DNA of 64,000 nt from an uncultured Candidatus Actinomarina sp. (GTDB lineage: Bacteria > Actinomycetota > Acidimicrobiia > Actinomarinales > Actinomarinaceae), in contig CACNQV010000001.1 in the NCBI GenBank assembly GCA_902622665.1, forward strand, positions 123,719-187,718. Direction: 5' to 3'. The position numbers were made by a program, and so were the translations under genes. Shown piece by piece: positions 9,037-29,200 of the stretch; the stretch's first letter is position 1; the number at the start of each line of letters is the position of its first letter. The notes under the pieces are model-generated. The model did not search any database, was not told the DNA's origin, and saw only the letters and a program-made list of their open reading frames with translations.

Positions 9037-9039
9037 TAT

Positions 9040-10650: not shown

Positions 10651-10736
10651 TTCTTCTGTTAATTATAGTCTTTTAGATCTTAGAGTTATAAATCGTTAAT
10701 AAACGTATCCTGAAAACTCTGTTCTTGAATTAAATC

Positions 10737-12194
10737 CTACTTGTCTTTTGATTGATTTAATTTGTAAGGATTGGGTGAGGGTGGACACCCAGGAGGACAT
10801 TTAGGCTGAACTGTTCTTGTCTGGCCTGGAACAATAACTGATGTTCCAGCTTCAACAAAGGCCAAAGACCAACCCCAATTTTCTGGATCATCAATAATTA
10901 GCTGTGTATTTGAATTAAAACTAAATCCTTCGTAGTACTCATACATATAGCCCATACCTTTTGGTTTATTTAAAAAAGGGACCTCACGTTTTTTTCCATC
11001 ATTTTCTGTAAAAATAAACTTTAAAGTTACAGGTGAGCCATTAGTTACAATAATAAAGTCAACTTTTGAATTGTTAGAAAATGGTAAATCAAGTGTTGTA
11101 GTGCCGTGTCCATGTTGATTAAATATATAATTTTCTGTTTTAAATCCAAGTTCTGTTGATAGTATCTCTTGTTTTGGGTCCAGGCTTGCGTCTCTCTCAT
11201 CACCATAAAAAACTACGTCTAAGTACTCTCCACCAAATGGATGTTCTGCTGGTCCGACATACCAACCCATTGAATCTGGTAGTCCTCTTGCCCTAGACCA
11301 GTCATTACCATAGCTTGAACTTTCCCAACCCTCTCTTGGATTTCTGTATAAATATGAGAACTGTTTAACAACTTCTTCAGTAAAAATTGCTGGTGCCATT
11401 TCTTGTTCTCTATTTGAACCTACTTTTTCCATTACTGAAAAAGCAATATGACTCGAAGACTGCATAGTACCAACCATCTCTTCCTGTGTCGGAACATACA
11501 TATATCCTAAAATGTCACCTTTTTTAACAACTTGACCATTTTCTACAAGAAGATAGTCTTTGAAAAAGGTTTCATTGTCTTTAATAACATATCCCTCCAT
11601 CTGATACAAAAAGCTAACAACATTGCCGTTGTTTTGTGCAAATTGTAATTTGAACGCATAAGAAGAATGCCACCATGGTGGATCTGAATCCGAATGATCT
11701 ACAACGTTATAATAAGAACCTTCTCCTTGTGCCATCTGGATAATTCCATCTGCTACTGCATAGAGTGGTGGATAATCTGATGCTTTGGTTGCCTCTCTCC
11801 ACCTTGGATCTGTATTTGAGAAATATACTTGAGCGTCATTATGAGGTCTTGGTGAGCGTTTTCCTACGTAAGGATGTCCAGCAATAATATCTTCAAAATC
11901 AACAAAGAACCTATTGCTTTTGTTGGTCATAAACTCTTTTATGTCTGGAAGCGTTTGTAGTGTTAATCCACTGTTTTGACTCTGATTACTAGATTGCTGA
12001 TTAGAGGAGGAGCTAGATTGCTTAGTAGCGTTTTGCTGATTAGATTGTTCTTCACTCTTTTGATCACTACTTTCTTGTGGTTGTTGCTCTTGCTGTGGTT
12101 GAGTAAGTCTTGAATCTGTTGCGCCGCCACAAAACGAAATCAATAGAAAAAGAATTATAACTCTCTTCATATAAATTAGTTTAGTAAACATCAA
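10737..12194 (-). CDS. secreted hypothetical protein with Q/S-rich low-complexity linker
   Basis: Signal peptide (VIILFLLISFCGG); QQEQQPQESSDQKSEEQSNQQ... low-complexity region; C-terminal CPPGCPPSPNP. Confidence 0.55.
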   Translation of the reverse strand: MMFTKLIYMKRVIILFLLISFCGGATDSRLTQPQQEQQPQESSDQKSEEQSNQQNATKQSSSSSNQQSSNQSQNSGLTLQTLPDIKEFMTNKSNRFFVDFEDIIAGHPYVGKRSPRPHNDAQVYFSNTDPRWREATKASDYPPLYAVADGIIQMAQGEGSYYNVVDHSDSDPPWWHSSYAFKLQFAQNNGNVVSFLYQMEGYVIKDNETFFKDYLLVENGQVVKKGDILGYMYVPTQEEMVGTMQSSSHIAFSVMEKVGSNREQEMAPAIFTEEVVKQFSYLYRNPREGWESSSYGNDWSRARGLPDSMGWYVGPAEHPFGGEYLDVVFYGDERDASLDPKQEILSTELGFKTENYIFNQHGHGTTTLDLPFSNNSKVDFIIVTNGSPVTLKFIFTENDGKKREVPFLNKPKGMGYMYEYYEGFSFNSNTQLIIDDPENWGWSLAFVEAGTSVIVPGQTRTVQPKCPPGCPPSPNPYKLNQSKDK

Positions 12195-12264: not shown

Positions 12265-14094
12265 TTATATTTTAGGTTGGAACTCATAAAGAGGTATAGC
12301 AACGATGTAGGGGTTGGCTGTATTCTCTGGAGCATCTTTTAAGATCAAGTAACTATCAGTACAGATTCTACAATCCCATAAAATTGTATAAAGAGTATCT
12401 TCTGTAAAGAAGATATCGCCAATCAAATAATCTTCACTAAATAAGTAATCCTCAACTATGTATCCATCAGGGTTCATTTCATTACTCACCTGTACATACT
12501 CAAGAACTAGTTCCTCCATTCGTTCTTTTGTAATTACATAGTTGTCTTCAATATTTTCAAACTCACAAGTTTCCAAGTTCATTGTGTATGAATTTGTGTA
12601 AGGGTACCTCAAAGTTCCTCCACCATCATCATATCTCCACTCTAAAATCGTTATGTAATCTTGAGGGCCATTAACAAACAATTGGGGAACATAATAATTT
12701 AGCCATTGTTGACCTCGCCCTCTTGGGGATGGATTTCCGTAGTAATCTGCAAGTTCAAAATATGAATTGTTGATTTCTGTAATTTTTTGATTTAACTCTT
12801 CATCGCATCTAATGCTGTATTCTTTAAACTCAATGGCTTCAAAAATATTTGGATTCTCCCACTGATAAGTTGCTGTATTATCGCATTCTTCTTGAGAAAA
12901 ACCATCATCTAAACACCACTGTTGTACTAATTCGTCATATACATATTCTGGTGCATCCCACCAAGTTTCTTTATAAAGATATTCACCAGATTCAAGACCA
13001 ACAGTTTGGGAATAGCTATCAAAGTATCTACCTTCTTCATAATTATTATTTCTAACGAAATCGTAATAATCATAAAGACCATAATGCACTGTTGAAAGAC
13101 CCTTATATTCCCATTCTTTCTCAAACTCTGTGTAATAGTAAGAATCAAATTTACTTAGTGTAAAAAGAAGAGAGGCATATTTACCAGTTCTAATTAGTAC
13201 ATCCTGCAGCTGATTCCAAGGAAGCAGAATTAACTCCATACCCTCAGCATATGATGAAGCACCGTATGGAGCATATTGATAATAAAGTCCGAGACTAGAT
13301 ATGTTGAACACACCTCTAAAGCTTGATGTAAATACTTCATCATCTTCTAGTGTTATGAAAGGGTCACTACCTAGACAATCATCAACTGAAACTTCTGGAG
13401 CACAAAGTTGTAAGCTCATTTCTTGAGTAACTCTTACGCTATTTTCTTTTGTAGATAAATCTAATATGTCAGTTGGAATATCAATTTTGCTGCAGTCATA
13501 TAGTAAATAATTTAATGAATATGGCTCTGTATATCCGTGAGCTGCTCCAGAACTATATGTATAAAAATAAAATAATATGGAGACTATTTCCTCAGTAATT
13601 TCTATTACATCATAATTTATATGAAGTATTTCTCTCCAAAAACCAACATCTTCTTCTTCAAATATTTGTGGATTCGTATATTCAAGAACTGATTTTTTAT
13701 CTTCAATCTGAATGTCAATTACTCTTAAAATTTCTTCTTCAATTATTTCACTACAGGCAAAACTGCTATCCAATTTTGGATAATTGATTTTATAATCATA
13801 ATCTTCAGACCACTCATGAACAGGGTTGACAGTTGCATTGGAATAATATGAATTGTATTTATATATTGTCGGAATATATTTGGTAGGTGTTGTCCTTATA
13901 ACACCTCTTCTGGGGCTTCTGTCAATGTCAATTTTCTTAGCTCTTTCTTCACTTGGCTGAACAAAAACAGTTGTTGAAGTTGTTGTAGTTTCACTTGTAG
14001 AGATAAGAGTATTTGTAGTTTCAAAATCACTTTCGACTGAGGTGCAATAAACAATAAGAAACAAGATCAGTAATAATGAAGTGTTATTTTTCAT
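12265..14094 (-). CDS. large secreted hypothetical protein (609 aa), Cys/Tyr-rich
   Basis: N-terminal signal peptide; T/S-rich stretch; many Tyr and Cys; no recognisable catalytic motif. Confidence 0.55.
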   Translation of the reverse strand: MKNNTSLLLILFLIVYCTSVESDFETTNTLISTSETTTTSTTVFVQPSEERAKKIDIDRSPRRGVIRTTPTKYIPTIYKYNSYYSNATVNPVHEWSEDYDYKINYPKLDSSFACSEIIEEEILRVIDIQIEDKKSVLEYTNPQIFEEEDVGFWREILHINYDVIEITEEIVSILFYFYTYSSGAAHGYTEPYSLNYLLYDCSKIDIPTDILDLSTKENSVRVTQEMSLQLCAPEVSVDDCLGSDPFITLEDDEVFTSSFRGVFNISSLGLYYQYAPYGASSYAEGMELILLPWNQLQDVLIRTGKYASLLFTLSKFDSYYYTEFEKEWEYKGLSTVHYGLYDYYDFVRNNNYEEGRYFDSYSQTVGLESGEYLYKETWWDAPEYVYDELVQQWCLDDGFSQEECDNTATYQWENPNIFEAIEFKEYSIRCDEELNQKITEINNSYFELADYYGNPSPRGRGQQWLNYYVPQLFVNGPQDYITILEWRYDDGGGTLRYPYTNSYTMNLETCEFENIEDNYVITKERMEELVLEYVQVSNEMNPDGYIVEDYLFSEDYLIGDIFFTEDTLYTILWDCRICTDSYLILKDAPENTANPYIVAIPLYEFQPKI

Positions 14095-14281
14095 ATTTAT
14101 ATATTAAACAAATATAGTGTCAAAATTTTTAAATCATATTTCAATATCGTCATATTCTAAAATACAAAAAATCTATAAAGCATTAGCTAGCAAAGAACGT
14201 TTCCTAAAAATACTTTCAAAAGACTATTTTTAAAACATTCGAAAACAAAAAAAGTCACTCAGAACAAAAAAGATTATTCGA

Positions 14282-15301
14282 TTAAAAAATAATTTTTTTT
14301 AAATTGTAGTCATCTTCAATATTTTTAAGTTCAAATGTAGAAATTAGAAGTTCGCCAATCTTTCCTCTGCCATCTCTTTTACTGTTAATAGACTTAGAAA
14401 CTAGGACCTCGTAAGCAAATAGCTCTTCATTTTGTAAAAATATCTCTCTTGCTAGTTCATTATTATTATTTGAAAGAATTACATTATTTCCATCTTCTGT
14501 TAACTTTAGAAATATTTTTCCTAGTTCCAAATGGTCTTTATATTTAAACCCTTGTGAACTGTAGTCAGTAAAATTTGATGTGTCTGAATTGGGTATATAA
14601 GGAGGATCTAAGTAAATAATGCTGTTTTTCTTTTCAATATTTTTGATAGTTTCTCTATATGAACTACATGTTATTTTCGCATTTGATAAATAAAGGCTTG
14701 CATTAGCAAGATTGTGTTTATCAATAATATTAACTTTTTTGTAGCTTCCAATCGGAACATTAAATTTATTATTACTATTTACCCTAAACATTCCGTTGAA
14801 ACATAACTTGTTAATTGCCTGCATCAAAACAGCAGATCTGATTTTTTGCTTTTTAGTTTTTGGTTTTGTTTGAATATACTCTACTTTTTCTTTTTTAAAT
14901 TCCTCTAGGTATGAAACTATTTTTTCTTTTACCCAAATCGAATTAAACTCCTCAACTAGGACTTTGTACTCATCAACAGGCCTCTTTTTTTTAGATAGTA
15001 ATTTATTGAACTTAACCTCTATTTCCTCACACTGTTCAATAAAACTTCCAAGATTCTTACTATCAGAAATAATCTCATAATAAGAAACAAGCTGGGGTAT
15101 AGCATCATTCAAATAAGCCGAATCAATTAATTCTAAATCTTTTAAGTGAAAGAAAATTGAACCTCCACCAAAAAATGGTTCATAGTAATCAAAAGTTTGA
15201 TTGTTTTCATTTTGGAGTAAAGAGAAAGCATCTGATATTAGATTTTTTAGTTTTGTCTTGCCTCCAACCCACTTAAGTGTTGGTTTAGTAATATTACTCA
15301 T
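14282..15301 (-). CDS. dam: Dam-family N6-adenine DNA methyltransferase
   Basis: MSNITKPTLKWVGGKTKL aligns to the Dam N-terminus (LKWAGGK); DPPY motif (YLDPPYIPNS). The track ORF runs to 15358, but a Dam-like start at the internal Met (15301) is more likely. Confidence 0.85.
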   Translation of the reverse strand: MSNITKPTLKWVGGKTKLKNLISDAFSLLQNENNQTFDYYEPFFGGGSIFFHLKDLELIDSAYLNDAIPQLVSYYEIISDSKNLGSFIEQCEEIEVKFNKLLSKKKRPVDEYKVLVEEFNSIWVKEKIVSYLEEFKKEKVEYIQTKPKTKKQKIRSAVLMQAINKLCFNGMFRVNSNNKFNVPIGSYKKVNIIDKHNLANASLYLSNAKITCSSYRETIKNIEKKNSIIYLDPPYIPNSDTSNFTDYSSQGFKYKDHLELGKIFLKLTEDGNNVILSNNNNELAREIFLQNEELFAYEVLVSKSINSKRDGRGKIGELLISTFELKNIEDDYNLKKIIF

Positions 15302-15356
15302 TGTATTAACACATATTACTAGACAGATAAGACTGAAATATTTAAAATGGGAAAAC

Positions 15357-15809
15357 ATGCTCAGTGATTATAAATCTGAAATGATTGCTATTTTTGAAAA
15401 TAATAGCTATAAATTACAGCCTATCAAAACTGAATTTGATACAAGTTTGATGATTAATCACATTACTAGAAGAACTCCCAAGCAAAATATCTATATAGCA
15501 ATTAAAGAGACCCAAGAACAGCCTAGATTAATGACAAGCAAAGCTGAATATTGCATAAGGTACATGGGGCAAGAAAGTCCCTCAGGTACAGCTTGGATGA
15601 AAATTGATCTATACGCCAAAGAGCTCAGTCACTGGGTACATAATATCGATTCTATTGACAAAGCTATCTTGTATTTGGGTGGAGATTTTTGGCAAGAAAT
15701 AAACATAAAAAACTATTGGAATAAGCTTGTAGAAAATTTGTCACTTCCTAGTGCTAATTTAAATATTGTTGATAGTGATGGCTTAGTTAACTTATTGGAG
15801 AATAAATGA
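15357..15809 (+). CDS. hypothetical protein, first gene of the GHKL/SNF2 operon
   Basis: In-frame ATG at 15357 (MLSDYKSEM...) avoids overlap with the divergent dam gene. Its stop overlaps the next gene's start by 4 nt. Confidence 0.4.
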   Translation: MLSDYKSEMIAIFENNSYKLQPIKTEFDTSLMINHITRRTPKQNIYIAIKETQEQPRLMTSKAEYCIRYMGQESPSGTAWMKIDLYAKELSHWVHNIDSIDKAILYLGGDFWQEINIKNYWNKLVENLSLPSANLNIVDSDGLVNLLENK

Positions 15810-17464
15810 CCCAATTTCAAATTCAGTTAGGTAATTCTTTTTTCAAATCTCTTGGTGCTGAAGACATGGAGCCATTGCTAGCAATAAACGAAATCATTGC
15901 TAACTCAATTGACTCGTGGATTGAAGAATATTGTGGTAAAAAAACAAAACGACCAAAACTATCGATAGATATCAAAATGTCAGCAAAAGAAATAACTATT
16001 CAAGATAATGCTGGAGGAATGGAACCAGAAGAGTTAAAAAATGCAATGGGACTTGCAAAAGTACAAAAAGAGCTCAGTGATTGTGCTGATGATTTAATGG
16101 GGATGTATGGATTTGGTCTTAAAGCTGCAACTGCAAATCTTGGAGGACATTTTGAAGTAGTTTCTAAAAGAAAAAATAAAGAACTCTGCCATGTGGTAAT
16201 GCCTATCGAAAAAATGGCCGAGGCAGTTCTTGAAGGAAAATCAGGAATGCTCAGTGATATTGAAGAAAGTGGGTATAACAAAAAAACAAAAATTAAAGAT
16301 GTAGAAAAATTATTTAAACCTGCAAATACAAAGTCTGGAACATTAGTTTATATTTCACAAATAAAAAGAACAAACTTTAATCCTGAGTCAATAATGAACG
16401 AATTGTGCTACGCATGGCATTTTTTCACTCAAGAAAATCATCTGGGGCCTCCTGTAGAGATAAAGTTCAACGGAGTAAAAATAGGCGAACCAGATTGGGG
16501 CAAAGAACAGGGTGGGCAAATTCCATATAGCTCCATAGATTTTGAGTTTCCATTTTCTTGGAGAGAAAAAACAAAAACAATTGATACTAAAATTCAATTT
16601 TCGATATGGCTTAATTTTAAAGGTGGACAATATCAAGCAGGTGGACTGTCTTTATATAGAAAACTTCAAATGGTTTCATATAGGGATCAGGAAATTGGTA
16701 AATGGTGGAGTAACGAATCTGCTGTTATAGAGGGGTATTTGAGCACAAGTTATTTAACACCTAACCAGCGTAAAGACGATTTAGATAGAACCACAAGGTT
16801 TTACAAAGAATTTAACAAAGCAATAGAACCTCTCATGAAGGGTGCTAGCAAGTTGGTTAGTTCATCAAGTGGATACTCAACTCTAGAAATGGCTAAAGAT
16901 GATTTTGAGAGGAACAAATTCCTAGCATTAAAGTGGCATAAATATTTCAATGAACATCCACTAATAAACGTAAGTTCAAAATTTCCAAAAGAACTTGAAA
17001 AATTTTTAAAAGACGAAAAAGATATTCCAGTTGGTCCTGATGAGCCTGGTCCAGAAGAACCAGGTGGTCCTGATGAGCCTGGTCCAGAGGAACCAGGTGG
17101 TCCAGAGAATCCGGTTGTTGAAATTTTTGAGCCTATCGATGAAAACTCTTTTAATTTTCATGGTGAAACATATCAACTCCTTATACTCAAAGACAAGACT
17201 GATGGAAGTAGTTATGACTGGAAAAAAACGGGAGAACAAATTGAAATATTTATTGATGATGAAATAGACGGCATAAATAAAGAAATGGAAGGTATGCTGA
17301 AAAAAATGACAGATGATCCTGGAACAGGTAAATGGGAAAAATTATCTTTAAATTTAATAAAAGAACACGTAATTCATCAATTTTTACTTAATGAAAATAT
17401 ACAAAATGCGCGAGCGTTTGCATTTGCAAAATCTTGGATTGAGAATATTTATAAAAATGAATAA
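15806..17464 (+). CDS. GHKL (Bergerat-fold) ATPase, MORC/MutL-like
   Basis: N-box EIIANSIDSW, G1 box QDNAGGM, G2 box GMYGFGLKAA; 552 aa; internal tandem repeat PDEPGPEEPGG x2. Confidence 0.7.
   Translation: MTQFQIQLGNSFFKSLGAEDMEPLLAINEIIANSIDSWIEEYCGKKTKRPKLSIDIKMSAKEITIQDNAGGMEPEELKNAMGLAKVQKELSDCADDLMGMYGFGLKAATANLGGHFEVVSKRKNKELCHVVMPIEKMAEAVLEGKSGMLSDIEESGYNKKTKIKDVEKLFKPANTKSGTLVYISQIKRTNFNPESIMNELCYAWHFFTQENHLGPPVEIKFNGVKIGEPDWGKEQGGQIPYSSIDFEFPFSWREKTKTIDTKIQFSIWLNFKGGQYQAGGLSLYRKLQMVSYRDQEIGKWWSNESAVIEGYLSTSYLTPNQRKDDLDRTTRFYKEFNKAIEPLMKGASKLVSSSSGYSTLEMAKDDFERNKFLALKWHKYFNEHPLINVSSKFPKELEKFLKDEKDIPVGPDEPGPEEPGGPDEPGPEEPGGPENPVVEIFEPIDENSFNFHGETYQLLILKDKTDGSSYDWKKTGEQIEIFIDDEIDGINKEMEGMLKKMTDDPGTGKWEKLSLNLIKEHVIHQFLLNENIQNARAFAFAKSWIENIYKNE
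17032..17104. repeat. 33-bp tandem repeat (x2 + partial) in the GHKL ATPase gene encoding PDEPGPEEPGG
   Basis: ggtcctgatgagcctggtccaga(a/g)gaaccaggt repeated directly. Confidence 0.8.
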
Positions 17465-18134
17465 AAAATTTAAACAAGCTTGGGAAGCACTATTAATATT
17501 AGAAAAATCTGAAAATCAAGAGTTAGCTGATTATGAAGATCAGCTACTTGATATATTAAATAGCCTATTTAACCACTGGCCTGAAAATGTTGATGATTTA
17601 ACTTTAGCTGACGAACTCAATACAACTGTTGCTAAAATTACCGCTTTAAAGTTTTTAAGTTCTATAGAAGAAGATGAATTAATCCCAGTTCTTAAAAAGT
17701 ACAGAAACACTTCGCTTTTATATGAAATATTAAAAATACCCGAGCAACCAAGAGGTGTTTTTTTAAATAGAGCAGGAAGAGTCAGGCATAATATTTCTAT
17801 GTTAGTAAAAATGGCCAATGATATGTTTAATGGTTTAACTGAAATTGAAAAAAATGAGAATTCTAATCCTTGGATGAAAAAAATTAGTGTTATAGATAAA
17901 AGTATCTGGGGAGATATAGCTAATGAAGCACAGGACTGGGGTATTAAAGAGCAGGATATTAAGAAAGTTGAGAAATTTAAAACAGGTAGAAAAAAAACAA
18001 TGCAGGATTGGGAATGGTTAAAAGATTTTGTAGAAATCCAGATAAATAAGAAAAATATTGCACCAAAAAATATACACGGAGAGCCTATGAATCATCACAA
18101 AGTTTTAATTGAAACATGGAAAAGAATAATCTAA
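17457..18134 (+). CDS. hypothetical protein (operon member, ~225 aa)
   Basis: Start MNKKFKQAWE overlaps the GHKL stop (8 nt); it ends 1 nt before the TTG start of the PLD-SNF2 gene. Confidence 0.45.
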   Translation: MNKKFKQAWEALLILEKSENQELADYEDQLLDILNSLFNHWPENVDDLTLADELNTTVAKITALKFLSSIEEDELIPVLKKYRNTSLLYEILKIPEQPRGVFLNRAGRVRHNISMLVKMANDMFNGLTEIEKNENSNPWMKKISVIDKSIWGDIANEAQDWGIKEQDIKKVEKFKTGRKKTMQDWEWLKDFVEIQINKKNIAPKNIHGEPMNHHKVLIETWKRII

Positions 18135-18135: not shown

Positions 18136-21100
18136 TTGTCCTATAAAGATTTACGCTTAAGAAAAACAGTCGAAGGTAGTGGAAAGCTACTTAATAATGT
18201 AATAAAACCTGCACTTAAAGAAAACACAAAAACATTTAAAGCTCTTACTGCCTATTACAGTATCGGCTCACTAGAGGCAATAGGTAAAACGCTCGATTAT
18301 TTTCTAAGTAATGACGGGGTAATTCAAATTGTTATTGGAGATCAAATAGATGACGAGAGGACACTTAAAGGGGCTAGTGAAAAACTTCAAAAAGAAGAAA
18401 TTGAAATTTTTCAAAAAAAATTACAGGAAGATGTTGAACTTGTAAGAAATAAAAATTCAAGGTTTACAATTGCGACAATTGCATATTTGATTTTAGATGA
18501 AAAATTACAGCTTAAAGTGGCTAATTATAAAAATGGTGAGCTATGGCATCCTAAAATGTACCTACTTGAAGATAAAGACGGAAATAAAATAGCAGCATCT
18601 GGATCTGGAAATATGTCAGAAAGCGGTTTTGAAAAAAACTATGAAATACATGATATTTTTACTAATTGGGACTTCGGAACCGAGTACTTTTCATCAGAAG
18701 ATCCATCCGAACCAACAAAGGAAGAAATATTTTGGAGAATTTGGAATAATAACGATGAAAATACAGAGGTAAAAGAACTTGATAGAGAATACGCTCAAAA
18801 GCTATTAGAGAGAATTGGCAATCCATCAAAAGAAGATGTTGTTAAACACGTAGAACAAAAATTAAAAGATAACCAGAATGAAAATTTATTAGACTTTAAA
18901 AAAGATTTACAAACTTCTCCAATTTTTCATGAGTTCAATTTAGGTAAATCAGCACTATATCCACATCAAATAAATGCAGTACAAAAAGCATTAAAAATGT
19001 GGCCAATTAGGATTCTCTTTTCTGATGAAGTTGGATTAGGTAAGACTTTAGAATTAGGAACACTTATAGCTTACCTAATTAAAAACAATTTAGTAGATAA
19101 TGTTTTAGTCTTGGCACCACCACCATTGACTGAACAATGGCAGGATGAAATGAAACTACATTTTGAACTAGACTTTGCAAGATATGACAGAACAAAAAAA
19201 AGTTGGGTTTATAAAGATGAAGAATTTCCAAGCATTAAAGAAAATACTCCTTTAAGATATAGCGATAATTTTCCTTCTTTAGCAATAATGTCTAAATCTA
19301 TGGCAGTTCGTTCAAATGAGCAACATATCTTCTTAGAAAATGATTCTTATCCTGACTTTTTAGTAATTGATGAAGCTCATCATGCCAGAATGCATAGAGG
19401 TTACGATGGTTCAGCAAAAAAAACGAATTTTAGAAAAGTTGTGGAACAAATCTCTAATGAAATCAAACACATGGCGTTTGCGACAGCAACACCAATGAGA
19501 AAAAATATAGATGAATACTTCTTCTTATTAGATCTATTGGGTGTGGAAGAGTTGATAAGTGAGGAAGATTATGAAAAATCTCTTTCTATAATAAATGACT
19601 TCTACACGGATGGGAATAATAAATTTAATTTAAATGACCTTTCCTTAGTCAAAGATTTATTAATTAAAATAATTGAAAAATCAGAGGATCGTTTTTTTCA
19701 TAATTCTCCAGAAATTAACAGCCTTGTAAACGAACTTAAAAACGGTAAAGATGACAATGCGTGGCTTTTTGAGAATAGTAAAAAATTAATTGAGTTTCAT
19801 ACAATTTATCATCCAACAAGAATTTTGACATCAAGAAATGTTCAAGAAAATCTAAACAAGTTTTCCGAAATTTATAAAATACCTAAAAGAACTCTTAGAC
19901 CATCTCCAATTCTTCCAATTGATATTTCAAATGAGCTTAATGATTTCTTTTTTAGCATTATGGAGTATGTAGATAAATTTTATCAAATAACTGAGCTTGC
20001 TATTACACCTGATAAACAATTACCTCTTGGCCTTAGAAGGCATTCTTTACAAGAGAGATTCGCTTCAAGTTTTTGGTCAGCAAAAAAGAGTATCGCAAAC
20101 AGAAGAGAACATCTTATAAATTCGCTGGAAGAATTTAAAGAGAATAAAATTTCAAAAGAATTTTTTGAGAATTCTGATGAAAATGTTGACGAAGATACAA
20201 TAATTTCTGATTTAACAAAAAGTGAATTAGTCAGTGTTGACTGGGAAAACGTAATAAAGAATTGTGAGTCAGAGATAAGAGCATTAAATGCCTATGTTGA
20301 CTTGGCAGAAATAGTTATCAATAGCACTCCTGAAGATATTGATCCTGACCCTAAAATAAATGAAACTGTCAGGTTATTCTCTGAACACATAGAAAAAAAT
20401 CCTGGAAAACCATTATTAATTTTCTCTAAATATACAGATACTTTAAATGAAGTTGAACGAGCTGTCATTTCTTACTGTGAAAACAACGATATCCCTGTGG
20501 GATATGCTAGTTACAGGGGTGACTATCGAAGAATTAAGTACGCAAATGACCGTGAACATAGAAAAGCTGAAAAAAGAGATATTACAAGAGCTCTTAATAA
20601 CGGACGAGTTCAAGTAATATTTTGTAGCTCAGCTGCCAGTGAGGGGCTGAATTTGCAAGCAGCTTCTTACATGATCAATGTAGATGTGCCTTGGGTTCCT
20701 AGTGATCTTGAACAGAGAATTGGAAGAATTGCAAGGCTAGGTCAGAAAGAAGATGAGGTATTGATTGATAATATTTGGTACCCATTCAGTATTGAAAGCA
20801 ATATGTATAAAAGACTTATTGATCGCCAGAGAGATATGTCATTTGCAATTGGACAATTTCCAGACTTGATTGCAGAGGCGATTAAAAATTTTGTAGACGA
20901 TAAAGATGCAAAAAAAATTGAAAAAACGATTGATGAAATTAATAAAAAGAAAAATAGCTATGAAATGAGAGTGTTAAATGAGCTATGGATCCAGGATGGG
21001 AATGAACCCCTTCATCCTTGGGGGAACGTATTTAGAAAAGAAATCCTCGAAATTATGCAAAAATTAGATTTAAATACCGAAAGTATTGATTCGAACTCAG

Positions 21101-21501
21101 GCTCATTGGACATTCTACATTTTCATTTAACAGAGTTTGAAGAAATATTTAATCAAGAACCAGAAGAACATGGTTCTAATACAAATTTGTTAGGCATTTA
21201 TTCAAATGAACAATTGGTAGGTTTTAAATTATTAAAAGACGGTGAAGAGAACGGTTTATTAATAAATCCTATCAATTTACCACAAGTACTAGAAAGTCTC
21301 TTTTTTGGAAGTAGCTTATCTATAGAGACTTATGACAAGCAACCAGACACTCTCAATAAATTACTTGACTTTTATTTAGATATAAAATTCCCGAGCTTGT
21401 TGCCAGTTCATCATTTAATTTCATTTATCGAAAACGAAATAAGTCAAAACTCGTTTGATAGAGAGCTAAAAGAAAAAGTAATAGGCAGAGTTACTCTGTA
21501 A
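18136..21501 (+). CDS. PLD-family (single HKD) nuclease fused to SNF2/SWI2 family helicase
   Basis: TTG start. N-terminus carries an HKD motif (HPKMYLLEDKDGNKIAASGSGNMS). Helicase motif I DEVGLGKT, motif II VIDEAHHAR, motif VI QRIGRIARLGQ. 1121 aa. Confidence 0.8.
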   Translation: MSYKDLRLRKTVEGSGKLLNNVIKPALKENTKTFKALTAYYSIGSLEAIGKTLDYFLSNDGVIQIVIGDQIDDERTLKGASEKLQKEEIEIFQKKLQEDVELVRNKNSRFTIATIAYLILDEKLQLKVANYKNGELWHPKMYLLEDKDGNKIAASGSGNMSESGFEKNYEIHDIFTNWDFGTEYFSSEDPSEPTKEEIFWRIWNNNDENTEVKELDREYAQKLLERIGNPSKEDVVKHVEQKLKDNQNENLLDFKKDLQTSPIFHEFNLGKSALYPHQINAVQKALKMWPIRILFSDEVGLGKTLELGTLIAYLIKNNLVDNVLVLAPPPLTEQWQDEMKLHFELDFARYDRTKKSWVYKDEEFPSIKENTPLRYSDNFPSLAIMSKSMAVRSNEQHIFLENDSYPDFLVIDEAHHARMHRGYDGSAKKTNFRKVVEQISNEIKHMAFATATPMRKNIDEYFFLLDLLGVEELISEEDYEKSLSIINDFYTDGNNKFNLNDLSLVKDLLIKIIEKSEDRFFHNSPEINSLVNELKNGKDDNAWLFENSKKLIEFHTIYHPTRILTSRNVQENLNKFSEIYKIPKRTLRPSPILPIDISNELNDFFFSIMEYVDKFYQITELAITPDKQLPLGLRRHSLQERFASSFWSAKKSIANRREHLINSLEEFKENKISKEFFENSDENVDEDTIISDLTKSELVSVDWENVIKNCESEIRALNAYVDLAEIVINSTPEDIDPDPKINETVRLFSEHIEKNPGKPLLIFSKYTDTLNEVERAVISYCENNDIPVGYASYRGDYRRIKYANDREHRKAEKRDITRALNNGRVQVIFCSSAASEGLNLQAASYMINVDVPWVPSDLEQRIGRIARLGQKEDEVLIDNIWYPFSIESNMYKRLIDRQRDMSFAIGQFPDLIAEAIKNFVDDKDAKKIEKTIDEINKKKNSYEMRVLNELWIQDGNEPLHPWGNVFRKEILEIMQKLDLNTESIDSNSGSLDILHFHLTEFEEIFNQEPEEHGSNTNLLGIYSNEQLVGFKLLKDGEENGLLINPINLPQVLESLFFGSSLSIETYDKQPDTLNKLLDFYLDIKFPSLLPVHHLISFIENEISQNSFDRELKEKVIGRVTL

Positions 21502-21697
21502 CTAATCTTTTAGCTTCATCAGGATCAAATCCATTAGTTACAAGATCTTCTCTCTTTGTACAACCACGACAAGGTTGCTGCTCTGTAATATCTGTATATT
21601 CTTGATAAATTATTTTAGATTCATGAATTTTTTCTAACCATTTGCAATCTCGAAATTTATGATAGGTTTTTTCATTTGTTGTTATAAAATCAGACAT
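21491..21697 (-). CDS. small Cys-containing hypothetical protein (68 aa)
   Basis: C..C..CRGC pattern, possible zinc ribbon; overlaps the end of the SNF2 gene by 11 nt. Confidence 0.25.
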   Translation of the reverse strand: MSDFITTNEKTYHKFRDCKWLEKIHESKIIYQEYTDITEQQPCRGCTKREDLVTNGFDPDEAKRLVTE

Positions 21698-21741: not shown

Positions 21742-22332
21742 ATGTTTGAAGAAAGATTTGGAAGCTTTGTTAAAAAAAACTATGAAATTCATGAATTTGG
21801 TAATGCTTCATCAATCTTCAAACATGATTATCCAACTGAATTTAATGAATTAAAAAGCTCCCTAGAGAATTTTACTCTCAAGAAATCTAATTTGATGGCA
21901 GGAGGAGGTGGAAAGTCAAAAATACCTCCTACTTTTGAAGATCCCTTGTATAAAAATGGATGGATTGAAAAAAATTTTGATATCAGTATTTCACTTGATG
22001 GTGTTGAAAACAAAATTGAGACACATAAAATTGACTGTTTTAAAAACAAAATAGGTATCGAAGTCGAGTGGAATAATAAAACAGAGTTTTATGATAGAGA
22101 TTTAAATAACTTTAGGGTATTGCATAGTTTAAATGCTTTAGACTTAGGAATAATCATTACAAGATGTGATGAGTTAAATGATATTTTTGACACTTTAAAT
22201 ATTAAATCAAAATATGGTTCATCCACAACTATTTTAAGCAAACTATTATTTAAAGTTAGAAGTGGTTCACTTGGCGGTTGCCCCCTTTTAATTTTCGGAA
22301 TTAAAAAAAGTTTATACAGAGATAATTTGTGA
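21742..22332 (+). CDS. hypothetical protein; possible BamHI-like restriction-endonuclease fold
   Basis: IDCFKNKIGIEVEW gives D-x11-E-x-E spacing reminiscent of the BamHI catalytic D..ExE motif. Weak. Confidence 0.3.
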   Translation: MFEERFGSFVKKNYEIHEFGNASSIFKHDYPTEFNELKSSLENFTLKKSNLMAGGGGKSKIPPTFEDPLYKNGWIEKNFDISISLDGVENKIETHKIDCFKNKIGIEVEWNNKTEFYDRDLNNFRVLHSLNALDLGIIITRCDELNDIFDTLNIKSKYGSSTTILSKLLFKVRSGSLGGCPLLIFGIKKSLYRDNL

Positions 22333-22383: not shown

Positions 22384-22959
22384 TCAGTATGAATCTACAA
22401 TAAAATAGTCACCACTAGGAATATTCCAGGCTTTAACTGCATCGAACCACCTAAAATGTCCTTCAGCTTCATTGGTATCTCCTGCAAAAACTATTCCCGA
22501 TACGTATTGAAATAACAATGATGAACATTTTCCATTGACATGAGACTTTGATGATTTCATATCAACTGCCCTTATTAATTTTTCAATATATTGAATAGTT
22601 CTTAAGGTAACTTGGCCTCCCGCATTTTTTCTATTCAATCTTATGTAGTCATTAATATTAGGCTTTGGTCTATTTAAACGTTGAGAAATTCTTACTGGAG
22701 CTAAAAACGCGTCTGGATCCTTTAAGTCATCTAATTTTCCATCTATTTCCAAAGAAATTTGCATATCTTCCTTATTAAATCTCATAATTATCCAAATATC
22801 TTTACCAAATTTAGACGTACCGAGATACCTTCGACCATTAAAAGTGTCTTTCTTTAACGCATTTGTAAGAAATTGCTCTTTTTTTCTTTTTTTAAGTTCT
22901 AACTTTTTGTTATCTATTTTTTTATTCAAATAATCCCCTTTCAATGTAAATTTGCACAA
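22384..22959 (-). CDS. hypothetical protein (191 aa)
   Basis: ORF; basic N-terminus; no motif recognised. Confidence 0.4.
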   Translation of the reverse strand: MCKFTLKGDYLNKKIDNKKLELKKRKKEQFLTNALKKDTFNGRRYLGTSKFGKDIWIIMRFNKEDMQISLEIDGKLDDLKDPDAFLAPVRISQRLNRPKPNINDYIRLNRKNAGGQVTLRTIQYIEKLIRAVDMKSSKSHVNGKCSSLLFQYVSGIVFAGDTNEAEGHFRWFDAVKAWNIPSGDYFIVDSY

Positions 22960-23093: not shown

Positions 23094-24839
23094 ATGGGTA
23101 AAGCGACATTTTTTGAGGGAGAATATCCAGAATCAAATACTTCTGAAAAAAAGGTTGCAGAAATTTTAAAAAAATTTTCAAATGAATGGACAATTTTTCA
23201 CTCTGTAAAAGTCCATGATCCCGAAACTGAAAAGCTAACAAATACAGAAATTGACTTTTTACTTATTCATCCTGCATATGGATTTATACAGATAGAGGTA
23301 AAAGGGAAAGGATACCAAACAGATGAGGAGGGTAATTGGTTTATAAAAAAAGGACCAAATAAAGAAAAAGTAGCTTCTCCAATTGATTCACTTGGTGAAA
23401 AACAATCTAAGATAATGAAAACTTTCCTGTATCACAATAAATCTATAAAGGGAGTAGATCTTTTTAATGTAAATGTACCCATAATATCACTTATGTTTTG
23501 GACTGACTTAAAGCGTGAAGATCTACCAATTGCAGAGGTTTCAGAAGTCAATTCTTACTTTGTTGAAGATATATTTATTCCGGTGGAAAGTCTTGAAGAA
23601 AATTTATTACAAAAATTGCAGAAACATATAAAAGTAAATAAAAAAATAAAATTTGATAAAAACAAGTGGTTGACTCCATTCTTAGGAAAACCCTTTGTTA
23701 CTACAGCTATTAATATTTTTAAACCATATCAGAAGAGTTATAAATTAAAGTCAGCAACAGGTAGAACCAGTAATGAATTAGAACTTGCTACACAAGAACA
23801 GATTGAGCATTACAAGATACTAACTGACAGCAGTTACAAACGTCACCTTGTAAGTGGCCCTCCAGGAAGTGGAAAGACTGTGTTAGCTAAAGCTATAGCT
23901 AGGGAAAGAGCAGAAGAAGGTAAAAAAGTACTTTTTATGTGTTTCAACAGGGCATTAGCTGATGAGATTGATTTTGAATTTAGGAAAGAAGAAAATATTG
24001 AAGTCATGTCTATGTGGAAGTATTTTAAACTACTTGGGATATCGTGGGAAGATACTGTTGAGCATGAAGGTAAGAAAATAGTACTTCAAAAACTACCTCC
24101 CCATATTTCATCAAAGTATATTGCGAAATTGTTAGAAGAAAAAATTAATGATGCTGTAGATAATTTTAAATTTGACACCCTGCTTATTGATGAAGCACAA
24201 GATTTTTCAGAAAAATATTGGGATTTTTTTAAATTACTTTTTGCTGAAAAGCCTGAATCAGCTTGGTATTTATTTTTTGACACAAACCAAGCTCTTACAC
24301 ACCCTGAATGGTCGCCTCCACTATTTGAAATATCTCATTCAAATTTACCCCTGACTTATATATTGAGATGTACTGAAAACATATCTTATAAAGTACAAAA
24401 TATATTTGAATCTAAGTTTGGCTTCAAGGGAATTACTGGAGAAGAACCTGAATTTTTAGTTGTAAATGAATCCTCATGGAACAAATCTTTGGAAGAGTTG
24501 GTGGAGTTATTAAAAAATCTTATAGACATTGAACATTTTTCTCCAAAACAATTATCGGTGCTGGTGCCTCACTCACGAGATATAGATTTGGTAAAAGGTT
24601 ATAAATATGATGAAGAAAGTTCTATTGAATCGAAAAAAATTAATGTATCTTCAGTTTACAAATACAAAGGACTAGAAAATGATATTGTTATAGTCGTCAT
24701 ACCTAGCTGGGATTCATTAAATGCCGATTATATACTTCAGCCCCTTAGTCTTGCCTATGTTGGCTTTTCGAGAGCAAAGACTAAATTGTACGTCATAGGA
24801 GATAAAAAAATCCAAAAAGAAATAAATTGGAACAAATAA
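23094..24839 (+). CDS. NERD-domain nuclease fused to UvrD-like SF1 helicase (Nhi-like)
   Basis: N-terminal NERD-like D..E.K core (EIDFLLIHPAYGFIQIEVKG); Walker A SGPPGSGKT; motif II LLIDEAQDF; UvrD-C-like end (YKGLENDIVIVV). Confidence 0.75.
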   Translation: MGKATFFEGEYPESNTSEKKVAEILKKFSNEWTIFHSVKVHDPETEKLTNTEIDFLLIHPAYGFIQIEVKGKGYQTDEEGNWFIKKGPNKEKVASPIDSLGEKQSKIMKTFLYHNKSIKGVDLFNVNVPIISLMFWTDLKREDLPIAEVSEVNSYFVEDIFIPVESLEENLLQKLQKHIKVNKKIKFDKNKWLTPFLGKPFVTTAINIFKPYQKSYKLKSATGRTSNELELATQEQIEHYKILTDSSYKRHLVSGPPGSGKTVLAKAIARERAEEGKKVLFMCFNRALADEIDFEFRKEENIEVMSMWKYFKLLGISWEDTVEHEGKKIVLQKLPPHISSKYIAKLLEEKINDAVDNFKFDTLLIDEAQDFSEKYWDFFKLLFAEKPESAWYLFFDTNQALTHPEWSPPLFEISHSNLPLTYILRCTENISYKVQNIFESKFGFKGITGEEPEFLVVNESSWNKSLEELVELLKNLIDIEHFSPKQLSVLVPHSRDIDLVKGYKYDEESSIESKKINVSSVYKYKGLENDIVIVVIPSWDSLNADYILQPLSLAYVGFSRAKTKLYVIGDKKIQKEINWNK

Positions 24840-24840
24840 C

Positions 24841-26295
24841 CTAAAGTAAGCTTGCCAGCCAATCATGCAGTAAATACAAGTTTTTACAATCTGCTTTGTT
24901 ATATTCAATAATTAAATCTTTTAATTCGTATTCCTCATTAAAAAAATAATCTTCAAAATACTGAATTGATTCCATTCCAGATTGTAAATCTTCAGTTCTA
25001 TTTATACCTGCTAACTTCTCAACTGTTTTTAAGGAGTAAGAACTTGCTCCAATCAACAATGAAGAGTTGACTATTGTAAATAAGTCTATAAAACACTTTT
25101 TTTCAATAAGTTGTTCTAATTCCTTTTCATACACGCCAAAGTTCTGAGCAGATCTTTTCAGAGAGGAAATTTCGTAACTAAAGTAGTGATAAAACTTTGC
25201 ATCAGGATACAGTTCTAAATGTTCAAGTAATTTTTCTATAAAGCTAACAAAAGAATTTTTTTCTTCTTCTTCGTCATCAGACCAGTAGTAAGTGAAACTA
25301 TCATTTTTGTCATTACTCCAAATGCCATAGAGGTATTCAAAGTTTCTACCAATAGTTAAAAACGGGTACCCCTCAAAATCGATATACAAGTCTCCTTTTT
25401 TAGGTTTTAGTAATCCATTTAAAGATGCATCTTTTATTTCATATGAAATTTTATTTTCGGTTGAGTCATTAAAAAGCTGGGCTAATTTTTTGTACTTAGT
25501 AAATGTAGCCTCGCCCATGCCGTCAATTTTTTCTAAATTAGTATTTTTTAATTCTTCAACAGTTTTGATGTCATTGTTTTTTAATTTCTCAATCTGTTTA
25601 GCTTGAATTCTATATAAAAGTTCGAGGCCATTATCTTTAATCCAAATTTTTTTAGCTTCATCATCGTACTCTTGGAGTTCTTCCCCTTTCTTTGGGTATG
25701 GTGGCGTTTCAGGATCGTATAAATTGTTGAAGTCCATAAACTGATTTTTAAGTTCCGCATAGATTTCCTTGTATTCATCAAATTCAACTTTATGCATTTG
25801 CAAATCTCCAAGAAACAAAAAACATTCCGTTACCTGTTTTTTGGTAACTGTTTCAAGAATTTCTCTGTAAACAAATAGTTGCATAATATGTTCTGTTTTT
25901 ATTGAAGATGAAAGCTTTGCATCAATTATGTGTAAGTTGTCATCTACTATTTTTACAAAATCTAATCTTCCGACAAAATCTATTGAAGAAATATAAGGTT
26001 GAAAAATAACATCAGGATTTTTCTCAAGTTCTTTTAAAAATACTTTGTTTGAAGAGTCTTTATTAGACATATCAACAACATTTAAATTTTCTGAAATTCT
26101 ATATTTGTCTTTTAAAACAACCTCATGCTCTTGTGCTTTTGTTAAAAGCTGTTTAGAAATTAATTTTGAGGCATTAATTTGTATTTTGTATTTAGCATCA
26201 ATTTTTTTTTCATCTACAAGTCTGTTTGTTTTATTACACCAGTAGCTAAAAGGTGAATTGTAGAATCTAATAAATTCTGATACGCTATGAGGCAT
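24841..26295 (-). CDS. RecB-family nuclease (COG2251/TM0106-like)
   Basis: PD-(D/E)XK-like HIIDAKLS...QLFVY segment plus a DnaQ/RNaseH-like YIDFEGYPF segment; shares an operon with sbcDC; overlaps the sbcC stop by 11 nt. Confidence 0.5.
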   Translation of the reverse strand: MPHSVSEFIRFYNSPFSYWCNKTNRLVDEKKIDAKYKIQINASKLISKQLLTKAQEHEVVLKDKYRISENLNVVDMSNKDSSNKVFLKELEKNPDVIFQPYISSIDFVGRLDFVKIVDDNLHIIDAKLSSSIKTEHIMQLFVYREILETVTKKQVTECFLFLGDLQMHKVEFDEYKEIYAELKNQFMDFNNLYDPETPPYPKKGEELQEYDDEAKKIWIKDNGLELLYRIQAKQIEKLKNNDIKTVEELKNTNLEKIDGMGEATFTKYKKLAQLFNDSTENKISYEIKDASLNGLLKPKKGDLYIDFEGYPFLTIGRNFEYLYGIWSNDKNDSFTYYWSDDEEEEKNSFVSFIEKLLEHLELYPDAKFYHYFSYEISSLKRSAQNFGVYEKELEQLIEKKCFIDLFTIVNSSLLIGASSYSLKTVEKLAGINRTEDLQSGMESIQYFEDYFFNEEYELKDLIIEYNKADCKNLYLLHDWLASLL

Positions 26296-29200
26296 TTAAA
26301 TCAATTAAGTTTACATCTTTGGATGATTTGCTTAATGCCTCAGCAAATACCTCGTCGTGTGTAAGAACAACAATTTGTGTTTCTGTTGCTAAGTCTTCTA
26401 AGACTTTAATAAAGCCTGCTTGTGAATTCCTGTCTAAATGATCTGATATATCATCGTAGAATAGTGGAAATCTAAAATCTGAATTTTTAAAAGTTTCAAG
26501 TTGCACTGCCATCCTTACTGCTAAGGCAATTGCGGCTTGTTCTCCATCACTGTGTAAGTGAAGCTCTTTATCTCTTGTATTTTCTTTAGATACTTGATAT
26601 TTCACACTTAAAATATCTTCTTCTTCGTCAAACTCAACACCTGATAAGTTTGGATTAATTTTATTGATGATGGAATTTATTCTCTTTTTTAAATCAAGTG
26701 TTATATTTGCTGTGTTCTTCAATTGCTCATCAACTAAATAAAGCGCTAATACTGTTGAAAGATATTGTTTTCTTGCTTCCTGCCACTCCCTCAAAATCTT
26801 ATACTTTTCAGAAAGTAAATCTTCCTTTTTGTAATCCGGTTCTGTAAATAAAGCACCTTCTAAACTGCTAAGTTCTAGTTTTTTATCTTCTCTTTTTGAT
26901 ATTGTCTCTTCTAGTTCATCGTCTATTTCATCAGAATTGACTAAAAGAGTATCAATAGTAAGTTCACTTGATAATATCTTCTTTGCAAACTGATCTTTTT
27001 CAGATTTCTTAAAAAAGTTAAGCTCATTATCATCGAATAAGGTTTCTAGTTGTTCTAGTACTAAAATCACACTTTCTATTTCATCAAGAGATTCTGCATC
27101 ATATGTGCTTAGGATGTTCTTATTCATTTTTTCAGCGTCTGTTATATATTTCTTGGATCCTTTGATTTCTTCTTCTAGTTGTTTTTTATTCTCAAGTTCT
27201 TCCTCTAACTTGGATATTGAATTGTTAAAATCTTCAATGTGGCTTTGAAGAGAAGTTCTTTCTAGTTCTTCTATTTCTAAATCTTTACTAATAGGTTCTA
27301 GTAGTTTTTTTAGGCTTTTCTTCTTAGAGTTCAGATCTGTAGTGAGACTATTGAGTTCTAGATTTTGCTCTTCTAAATTTAATGTGTCTTGATTTAAATC
27401 AACTAAAAGATCTAATTGCTCTTCTAAATCTTCACTTTCCATAAAAGCTTTCGAAACTTTATATTTTTTTATTAACTCATCAGACGCTTTTTTAATTTCT
27501 GTGATGCCTTCTTTCTTTTTGCTTAATTCTTCTTCTAACTTGCTCTTTGAATCATTTAAGGTGTTTAATTCCTCTTCTAAATCTATTAAGTCATCTAACT
27601 GATCGAAATAATAGGAGAAATCCGAGTCTTTAAGGGTTACTTCACCCAATTTATATTTTTTTGAGATTGTCTCATTTTTCTTTAAAATATTCCTTACATC
27701 AGAGGTATATGTCTTTTCTTTGAGTTTTAAAATTTTGATTTCTTCTTCTATAGACTGAAACTGTAATCTTGTTGTTAAATTTTTAACTAGACTCTCATAA
27801 TCATCATGAATTAAAGACACCTTAGACATTATCAATGTCTCATTTTCCACAATAATATCTAATAGATCTTCTAATTTTTTTATATCTTTATAAGATTTAT
27901 GAACTTTTTTAAATGTCTTTTGATTTTCTTCTAAAATGCTCTGGATAGATTCTGTAATTGAAAATATATCATCTCCTCTATAGTCAATGTGCTGTGTGCC
28001 GGCTTTGTCTTCATTCAATCTTTTTAGCTTCTTCTTTGTCTCATTAGAGTTTTGTTTGATATCAAGAATTTCTTTATTGAGTTTTTTCAACAACGTTTTA
28101 TCTTTTGCGGTTATTTTTTCTTTTTTTAATTGAGCTATAGTCTGAGGAGAAAAGCCACAACTATCTATTGACTCTTTAATTTCTTGTTTCTTGTTTTTTA
28201 TATCGATTTTAAGTTTTGCTATTTCATCTACTAAAGGTTGTGAATCAAATTCATTTATCTTGTTAGAAATTGTAAGTATTTTGTTTTTATCACTTTCTTT
28301 TAACTTAGTTTTTTTATAGAACGCAACACTTGTTTTTGTCAGATTTAACTCTTCTTCTATTTCCGTTAAGGCAGTTTTTAAACTTTCAACTTTATCTATT
28401 TGTAAAAGAACTTTTTCGTTTGCATTTTCATACTCATCAAATGCAGTGAGATAGGTGTCTACTTCCAATTCTTTTAAATTGGTCTTTTTGACTCCACCAA
28501 TCCTTTCATCACACTCTTCCAATTGGATTTTTAAATCTACTAGATTATTTCCCTTCACTTCAACCTCTGAAATAGATTCATTCAAATTTTTATAATCTGA
28601 TTCTATTTTTACGAGCTTATGGGTTTTATAAGAATTGGTCTTAATGTTTTTCTTTTGAAGAGAATTTAGTGAATCTAGTAATTCTCCAATATTTTCAATA
28701 TGTTTTTGTTGAATTTGTATTTCTGTTTTTGTAGATTCCAGTTCACTAATTTTTGTATTCAGGCTTACTATATTTTTCTTTAACTTAGCTATGTCCTCTT
28801 CATCATTTTTAGATAAATTATCTCTATTTTCTTTCTCTGTTTTTTCAAGGTCTTTTAGCCTATCGTTTACATCTTTTAAATTGTTTTGAAGCTCTCCAAT
28901 TTTTGTTAGGTTTTTAGTTCTTGTTGCACTCTCTGTTTTATCTGTCAACTTAGTTGCATACTCAGCATAAGACATAACAGCTTCTTCAACATTTTGAGAC
29001 ATTGAACCTGACGCTACGCTTATTAACTTTATTAAATCATTTCTTATGTTTTTATCTAACGAAATTGAACCTTGTATGTCTGAAATCATCTTTGTTGATG
29101 TAAAAAAGAAGTTTGAAAATAATCTTCGCATCTTCTCAACATCATCTATTTGAGGATATATATTTTTTATCTGTTCATTAATATTTTTGTCCCACTTACT

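Follow-up and report, generated by a model that had tools for sequence, protein, structure and literature searches.

The window analysed here is a stretch of 64,000 nucleotides (nt) from an uncultured Candidatus Actinomarina sp. (GenBank assembly GCA_902622665.1, contig CACNQV010000001.1, forward-strand positions 123,719 to 187,718). Its plus strand encodes, at 18136..21501, a protein of 1121 amino acids (aa) in which a phospholipase D (PLD) domain with an HKD motif is fused to an SNF2-family motor. This PLD-SNF2 protein is the product of the last gene of a compact operon, where it follows an open reading frame (ORF) of ~150 aa, a GHKL ATPase and a protein of ~226 aa, with consecutive genes joined by stop/start overlaps or a 1-nt gap. 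A Dam-family adenine methyltransferase is encoded divergently from the operon. With moderate confidence, the PLD-SNF2 protein is read as the effector, acting as nuclease and translocase, of a restriction-modification-like defence cassette of the MORC type that is as yet uncharacterised.

The PLD-SNF2 ORF begins with a TTG codon located 1 base past the stop of the upstream gene, a junction placed at the same position in the gene calls of homologous loci. The original prediction, made from the sequence by itself, had described an HKD motif near the N-terminus ahead of an SNF2 ATPase, and all the strings that it quoted were found in the protein. The HKD string HPKMYLLEDKDGNKIAASGSGNMS spans residues 138-161 (nt 18547-18618), with the layout H138-P-K140-MYLL-E145…G156-S-G-N159 (nt 18547-18612). 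The motif was also claimed to be a lone one, and indeed the full pattern H.K.{4}[DE].{4,12}G[ST].N occurs once in the 1121 aa; 18 of 20000 residue shuffles matched it. A second HxK, at residue 808, falls within RecA lobe 2 and does not form part of an HKD motif.

Behind the N-terminal PLD domain, the protein carries a complete SNF2-family ATPase, with the signatures named by the original prediction. RecA lobe 1 (18943..19590, plus strand), delimited by the Pfam SNF2-rel_dom and ResIII families and by alignment with RapA, contains DEVGLGKT at residues 297-304 (Walker A GLGKT at nt 19033-19047), VIDEAHHAR at about residues 410-418 (DEAH box 412-415, nt 19369-19380) and the TATP motif III at residues 450-453 (nt 19483-19494). 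RecA lobe 2 (20371..20835, plus strand), delimited by Pfam Helicase_C and the RapA alignment, contains motif VI, QRIGRIARLGQ, at residues 860-870 (nt 20713-20745). Both Pfam matches exceed their gathering scores: 52 bits against 24.9 for SNF2-rel_dom (residues 292-485) and 65.1 bits against 23.5 for Helicase_C (residues 746-869, E 8e-18). The closest solved relative of the motor is RapA (2e-26), the best PDB sequence matches being RapA, DDM1 and INO80.

The long insertion reported between the two lobes is real. The RapA alignment covers residues 271-469 and 824-873 of the PLD-SNF2 protein, and the span between these segments amounts to ~355 aa, compared with ~224 aa in RapA. In SNF2 proteins, insertions characteristically sit between the lobes, so the insertion is not in itself anomalous. 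The inter-lobe region proper (19591..20370, plus strand) comprises ~260 aa, ~130 aa more than its RapA equivalent, and gives no Pfam match when searched alone. Since the PADLOC models of DrmD and HmaA align from about residue 565 onwards, its C-terminal part corresponds to the usual SNF2 helical region.

The PLD-fold nuclease domain, recognised from the AlphaFold model, Foldseek and the HKD motif, occupies approximately residues 1-230 (18136..18825, plus strand) and is followed by a helical linker at about residues 232-260. Structure prediction, which had been proposed as a check on the N-terminal region, returned the expected fold, so that the absence of a PLD fold, which would have refuted the original prediction, was not observed: the AlphaFold model of residues 1-265 has a mean predicted local distance difference test score (pLDDT) of 79, rising to 89-95 in the block holding the two HKD strands. 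In a Foldseek search of the PDB, the best match of this domain model was SauUSI (7clg, E 7e-8), followed by BfiI (2c1l), NucT (6ehi), NgoAVII-R (4rct), phosphatidylserine synthase, Zucchini and Nuc (1byr), with a probability of 1.0 for SauUSI, BfiI, NucT, NgoAVII-R, Zucchini and Nuc; the top matches were exclusively PLD-superfamily proteins. Moreover, a family alignment of 35 sequences, reaching down to 17% identity, shows no variation at H138, K140 and N159 and almost none at G156. Solved PLD nucleases with a single HKD per chain suggest that the domain would dimerise to form one nuclease site.

The C-terminal region (residues 901-1121; 20836..21498, plus strand) is family-specific, being kept in the close family only (35% identity in locus L004 and 27% in locus L001). 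Its model has a pLDDT of 74, exceeding 84 over residues 961-1080. This region bears on an alternative in which the PLD-SNF2 protein works on its own as a Type IV (modification-dependent) enzyme, as SauUSI does, with its C-terminal domain reading a modified base on foreign DNA, and in which the Dam-family methylase either serves a neighbouring BglII-like endonuclease or is an orphan. SauUSI, the Type IV enzyme of Staphylococcus aureus (7CLG), is a PLD-SF2 (superfamily 2) protein that dimerises through its PLD domains, translocates and shreds DNA (PMC7913695). In both proteins, a single polypeptide joins an N-terminal single-HKD PLD domain, carrying the H(X)K(X)4E variant of the motif, to an SF2 motor by way of a linker (PMC7913695). 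Among solved structures, SauUSI comes closest to the nuclease domain, the two proteins share the HxK(x)4E motif, and the family-specific domain of ~220 aa is found at the position of the SauUSI target-recognition domain. However, SauUSI acts alone and carries a coupler and an SRA-type target-recognition domain, whereas the Foldseek search of the PDB with the modelled C-terminal region of the PLD-SNF2 protein found no SRA-like or other reader fold. The window protein further differs in its SNF2-family motor and in its obligate-looking partner genes, and a phmmer search gave no match to SauUSI. The Type IV alternative is considered unlikely, and the gene neighbourhood adds further evidence on both sides, as described below.

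The operon partners of the effector, that is, the MORC-like GHKL ATPase, the small protein and the Dam-family methylase, are the informative part of the locus and were absent from the original prediction. The GHKL ATPase (15806..17464, plus strand, 552 aa) combines a Bergerat-fold ATPase, a Pro/Glu-rich linker and a C-terminal domain. It matches Pfam HATPase_c_3 (6e-15), and its best PDB profile matches are MORC3 (9e-11), MORC4 and MORC2, followed by Topo VI-B, HtpG and MLH1. The motifs NEIIANSIDSW, DNAxGM and GxYGFGxKAAT are invariant in the family alignment, as is a MORC-like GLxxYRxxQhh segment. Judged by these motifs and profiles, the protein belongs to the MORC radiation (MORC or one of paraMORC1-5) and has its ATP-binding motifs intact. 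A low-complexity Pro/Glu/Gly linker, PVGPDEPGPEEPGGPDEPGPEEPGGPENP, at residues ~416-445, splits the GHKL module from the conserved C-terminal domain; a Pro-rich linker is seen in the GHKL protein of L004 as well. The search for homologs of this ATPase retrieved the close family alone (22 clusters).

The protein of ~226 aa (17454..18134, plus strand) always lies between the GHKL gene and the PLD-SNF2 gene. Its longest ORF begins at 17391, but homologs favour the ATG at 17454. It evolves fast, with 21-29% identity where the PLD-SNF2 protein is 33-42% identical. The first gene of the operon, the ORF of ~150 aa (15357..15809, plus strand), has a stop codon that overlaps the GHKL start by 4 nt (ATGA). 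It is 82% identical in L087 and 58% in L090 (tblastn), being kept only at 77-94% effector identity and missing from the clade at 56% effector identity, and it has no match in Pfam, NCBIfam or PADLOC. A promoter scan of the operon scored no better than shuffles, and a terminator scan was uninformative on the operon ends.

The divergent gene (14282..15358, minus strand) encodes an N6-adenine DNA methyltransferase of the Dam family (D12 class), with matches to Pfam MethyltransfD12 (3.7e-46) and NCBIfam TIGR00571 dam (186.6 bits against a cutoff of 114.85). Its translation carries the DPPY motif, and its true start is probably at M20. This methylase is the candidate self-marking enzyme of the cassette. 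On the other side of the operon, a conserved Cys/His ORF of 68 aa (21491..21697, minus strand) is convergent with the PLD-SNF2 gene and overlaps its stop codon. It is called in L087, L088, L089, L090 and L091 and tracks the cassette, with identities of 99%, 85% and 60% (tblastn). Residues H12, C17, C42 and C45 are invariant, and such conserved His and Cys residues suggest zinc binding. The product may be a regulator or an accessory protein; the Pfam and PADLOC scans assigned it to no family.

The core cassette recurs in low-GC, mostly marine, metagenome contigs, the close loci measured having ~31% GC. The order GHKL ATPase, small protein and PLD-SNF2 is kept at 94%, 77%, 56%, 42% and 33% effector identity. 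The GHKL gene is directly upstream of the small protein and PLD-SNF2 genes in every locus that includes the upstream side (L001, L003-L005 and L087-L091), and the upstream part of L006 is decayed. An autonomous enzyme of the SauUSI kind would need neither of these two partners, which argues against the Type IV alternative. The labels of the metagenome-assembled genomes (MAGs) that carry homologs disagree (Acidimicrobiia, 'Rhizobiales TMED94', Gammaproteobacteria), and the family seems to be limited to uncultured lineages of low GC, most of them marine, whose defence systems are poorly sampled.

The D12 methylase is present in the clade at effector identities of at least 56% and stays beside the cassette in three unrelated flanking contexts. 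Furthermore, its divergence follows that of the cassette, with identities of 85%, 48% and 40% and, in L006, a fragment at 38%. These data also bear on the gene for a BglII-like restriction endonuclease (21742-22332, plus strand; Pfam 1.3e-38) that adjoins the cassette in the window and that might serve as the partner of the methylase under the Type IV alternative. Together with an ORF of 191 aa (22384-22959, minus strand; no family named), this gene is inserted between the cassette and a NERD helicase gene in the window and in L087 only. Being absent from L088-L091, the BglII-like gene was rejected as a member of the cassette, and the methylase remains with the cassette in L088/L089 and L090, where the BglII-like gene is missing; this association and the co-divergence both speak against the Type IV alternative. 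No methylase of their own was detected beside the BglII-like endonuclease and the 191-aa ORF. The endonuclease may rely on the Dam-family methylase of the cassette, or may be inactive.

Comparison of the cassette with its flanks argues against a further alternative, in which the PLD-SNF2 protein would have a housekeeping task, as a remodeller like RapA or in repair, and its PLD domain would not act as a nuclease. Such a role could be suggested by RapA being the closest solved relative of the motor and by the presence of sbcCD-like genes and gyrBA in the same region. Nevertheless, the distribution of the family is patchy and the cassette diverges faster than its flanks. Between L087, the closest relative, and the window, the cassette is 82-94% identical and the downstream-side NERD-UvrD, RNase_H_2-like and sbcCD-like genes 96-98%; between L001 and the window, the values are 72-74% for the NERD-UvrD and RNase_H_2-like genes and only 25-33% for the cassette. 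In L006 (JGI 3300066022, 1-11211), a flanking PdaC-domain gene is 86% identical to window positions 12265-14094, the cassette is ~37% identical, and the GHKL and D12 methylase genes are broken into fragments. A conserved flank next to a diverged and decayed cassette indicates that one allele replaced another at a fixed chromosomal site and then decayed, a pattern typical of defence loci that speaks against a housekeeping role. Other loci of the family have defence genes as neighbours (TIR/SLATT, DarT/NADAR), and the PLD domain has its nearest structural relatives among nucleases. In addition, all the profile matches of the PLD-SNF2 protein beyond the generic motor are to defence-system proteins, including the PADLOC models 'PLD_Helicase' and 'HKD+Snf2' and the NCBIfam family 'phospholipase D-like domain-containing anti-phage protein'. 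With this evidence, a housekeeping function is regarded as highly improbable.

The fusion of a PLD domain to an SF2 motor is itself a known design, with solved structures for SauUSI and MtsD and with models in PADLOC and NCBIfam, and the MORC-linked operon is an uncharacterised variant of it. The original prediction, which had described a translocase-coupled nuclease architecture comparable to known restriction enzymes but built from different parts, was right in kind, although the idea of different parts is not new, since SauUSI, MtsD and PbeA precede it. A HMMER search with residues 1-265 against 1.84 billion cluster representatives found 1018 clusters at E ≤0.001. In nearly all of the 150 clusters listed of the 1018, the match starts near the N-terminus, and the relatives among these 150 fall into two size classes, ~700 aa and ~1100 aa, apart from shorter, probably fragmentary sequences. 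Three ~700-aa examples that were checked are true PbeA proteins, and three ~1100-aa examples that were checked have the same partial PLD-helicase and DrmD profile as the window protein.

The closest named sequence relative is MtsD of MANTIS/Gao_RL (PADLOC PLD_Helicase PDLC02193, 2e-55; NCBIfam NF042964, matched by residues 17-470). MtsD is a PLD-SF2 protein that forms a dimer with one composite PLD active site according to cryo-electron microscopy (bioRxiv 10.64898/2026.09.23.753747). The two systems share a logic, with an ATPase, a small co-factor, an adenine methylase and a PLD-motor effector in an operon. However, membership in the MtsD family was rejected on the score (279.7 bits for NF042964 against a cutoff of 1100), and the operon is not that of MANTIS, which has a DUF499 AAA+ ATPase, a DUF3870 protein and a DUF1156-type methylase where the window has an HATPase_c_3 GHKL protein, two ORFs and a D12 methylase. 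A search of genome contigs also returned distant PLD-SNF2 relatives, with 22-34% identity and no close family member among the matches listed. Three of these, L007, L011 and L044 (22-27% identity, among the matches listed), lie downstream of genes for a DUF499 AAA+ ATPase and a DUF1156 methylase, a layout that is MANTIS or BREX-related; the PADLOC model of BrxH also matches the motor part of the window protein. The GHKL profile search found no GHKL homolog beside any of 80 distant PLD-SNF2 loci among the matches listed.

PbeA, an HKD endoDNase fused to an SF2 helicase (PMC10853773), is homologous to the window protein over the PLD domain and RecA lobe 1 (PADLOC PbeA models, residues 8-431, 2e-44, 150 bits), and both systems include a fast-evolving small protein (PMC10853773). 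Membership in Pbe was rejected because true PbeA has ~700 aa and scores ~738 bits over its full length, compared with a partial match of 150 bits here. The CxC ABC ATPase and DndE partners are absent, with no DndE-like gene nearby in the Pfam and PADLOC scans. The sole ABC/SMC-type ATPase nearby is encoded by the 1065-aa SbcC-like gene, ~5 kb downstream on the opposite strand.

The SNF2 motors of Hma and DISARM match the motor part of the protein in PADLOC (HmaA, 5e-46; DrmD, 6.5e-51). HmaA is an SNF2 helicase with a C-terminal PD-(D/E)xK nuclease rather than an N-terminal PLD domain (PMC11232893). Hma was rejected, given the N-terminal PLD domain found here, the restriction of the HmaA model to the motor and the lack of any HmaB or HmaC/DUF499 match among the neighbouring genes (PADLOC). 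Class 1 DISARM was rejected as well: the NCBIfam DrmD score is 193.3 bits against a cutoff of 610, and PADLOC found no DrmA, DrmB or DrmC among the surrounding genes.

The gene set fits a class known from a computational prediction. Iyer, Abhiman and Aravind (2008) predicted restriction-modification-like operons in which MORC or paraMORC GHKL ATPases are combined with SF2 helicases, nucleases and methylases (PMC2292703). In the window, a MORC-type GHKL ATPase with intact motifs shares an operon with the SF2 helicase and its nuclease domain, and the methylase is encoded beside them. As far as the main text of that paper goes, the partners named include HKD fusions as well as SNF2 helicases and, rarely, adenine methylases; however, the HKD domains are placed on Rad25-like helicases and the SNF2 proteins are associated with HNH or EcoRII-like nucleases, so that an HKD-SNF2 fusion with a MORC-like partner is not spelled out there (PMC2292703). 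On the experimental side, VcSduA is a single-protein GHKL-Shedu fusion in which a paraMORC-type GHKL domain is needed for the anti-phage activity of its nuclease. In the literature searched, it was the only experimental case found of a prokaryotic paraMORC-type ATPase controlling a nuclease.

For the favoured reading of the PLD-SNF2 protein as the effector of a MORC-type cassette, the following mechanism can be proposed. If SauUSI, MtsD and BfiI are a guide, two protomers would pair through their PLD domains to create one metal-independent active site, and this composite site would cut the two strands one after the other by way of a phosphohistidine intermediate. The SNF2 motor would hydrolyse ATP to move the dimer along duplex DNA, resulting in cleavage away from the loading site. 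From the gene neighbourhood and the precedents of MORC proteins and VcSduA, the GHKL ATPase would serve as an ATP-driven dimerising DNA clamp that cooperates with the small protein in recognising target DNA and in licensing the effector or recruiting it. Host DNA would be marked as self by the adenine methylase encoded next to the operon.

Several findings weigh against this reading. The match of residues 63-180 to Pfam PLDc_2 (26.2 bits, E 8e-6) is 0.8 bit under the gathering score of 27, and the C-terminal region has no Foldseek match in the PDB below E 0.8 and no Pfam match. The small protein of ~226 aa lacks a recognisable fold, with no match in Pfam, PADLOC, NCBIfam or the PDB. Even for MtsD, cleavage was not reconstituted in vitro (bioRxiv 10.64898/2026.09.23.753747). 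The BglII-like endonuclease, encoded 240 bp downstream, could be the real partner of the methylase. Finally, the methylase is not universal. In L004 (42% effector identity), a TIR-domain gene takes the place of the methylase, none being encoded within 8 kb, and the only methylase of L001 (33%) is a C5 enzyme whose gene is flanked by BglII-like genes. Self-marking by methylation may therefore hold for part of the family only, and the existence of members without the D12 methylase also speaks for the Type IV alternative.

The same methylase-less variants, one of them beside TIR-domain genes, can be accommodated by an abortive-infection mechanism, in which the MORC-like ATPase and the small protein sense a sign of infection, for instance a phage protein or a replication intermediate, and release the nuclease on any DNA, including that of the host, without discrimination by methylation. 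The fast evolution of the small protein would fit a trigger-interacting or regulatory part, an analogous 'small disordered protein' has been proposed for Pbe systems, and suicide action has been proposed for HKD-SF2 effectors (PMC10853773). Nevertheless, the methylase co-diverges with the cassette in the clade of the window, and the two best-characterised PLD-SF2 enzymes, SauUSI and MtsD, act directly on invading DNA. Abortive infection is accordingly given a low probability. In L004, the TIR-domain gene occupies the divergent position (4248-5501), and TIR and SLATT genes are found downstream (14072-16403). TIR domains fused to or beside the paraMORC4 family are among the associations given by Iyer et al. 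(2008) (PMC2292703).

A more specific version of the MORC-type cassette can be put forward tentatively, as a plausible but by no means favoured possibility. Here, the Dam-family methylase, the MORC-like GHKL ATPase, the small protein, the HKD-SNF2 protein and possibly the 68-aa protein would form a system with the logic of MANTIS, in which the AAA+ loader is replaced by a MORC-type clamp, and the MORC ATPase would read or enforce methylation and license the SNF2-driven nuclease. If true, it would offer prokaryotes as a simple model both of the way in which MORC, SNF2 and DNA methylation are functionally coupled in eukaryotic silencing and of the proposed bacterial origin of eukaryotic MORCs. 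The fusion alone adds little, but the partner set could matter: where a MORC-like ATPase, a shredder resembling SauUSI and a Dam-type methylase occur in one compact set of genes, the control of a motor nuclease by a MORC clamp would become accessible to testing, as would the question of whether the clamp reads methylation.

Beyond the BglII-like endonuclease and the 191-aa ORF, the window continues with a NERD-UvrD helicase gene and a convergent gene of 484 aa that is Cas4/PD-(D/E)xK and RNase_H_2-like (23094-26295), whose counterpart in L001 is located at 13829-17030. L001, which carries this pair at 72-74% identity, is an Acidimicrobiia MAG, and the synteny suggests a marine actinobacterium as the host of the window. 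The pair looks like a conserved anchor beside a variable defence slot. Further downstream, an HSP70-like ATPase of 749 aa is followed by a protein of 261 aa with a weak MotA/ZorA-like PADLOC match (3e-4; 32282-35321, plus strand), and these two genes may represent a further pair of the defence type within this island. A stand-alone Cas4-like PD-(D/E)xK protein of 248 aa is encoded at 9904-10650 (minus strand); despite its presence, no CRISPR-Cas genes were detected in the examined parts of the window. The sbcCD-like genes (AAA_23, 1065 aa, and Metallophos, 446 aa; 26285-30822, minus strand) and the gyrB and gyrA genes, which lie next to each other (59162-63636, minus strand), indicate that the region is chromosomal. 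The GyrB of the window scores higher against the M. tuberculosis type than against the E. coli type, in line with an actinobacterial (Acidimicrobiia-like) host, and the GC content is ~33%.

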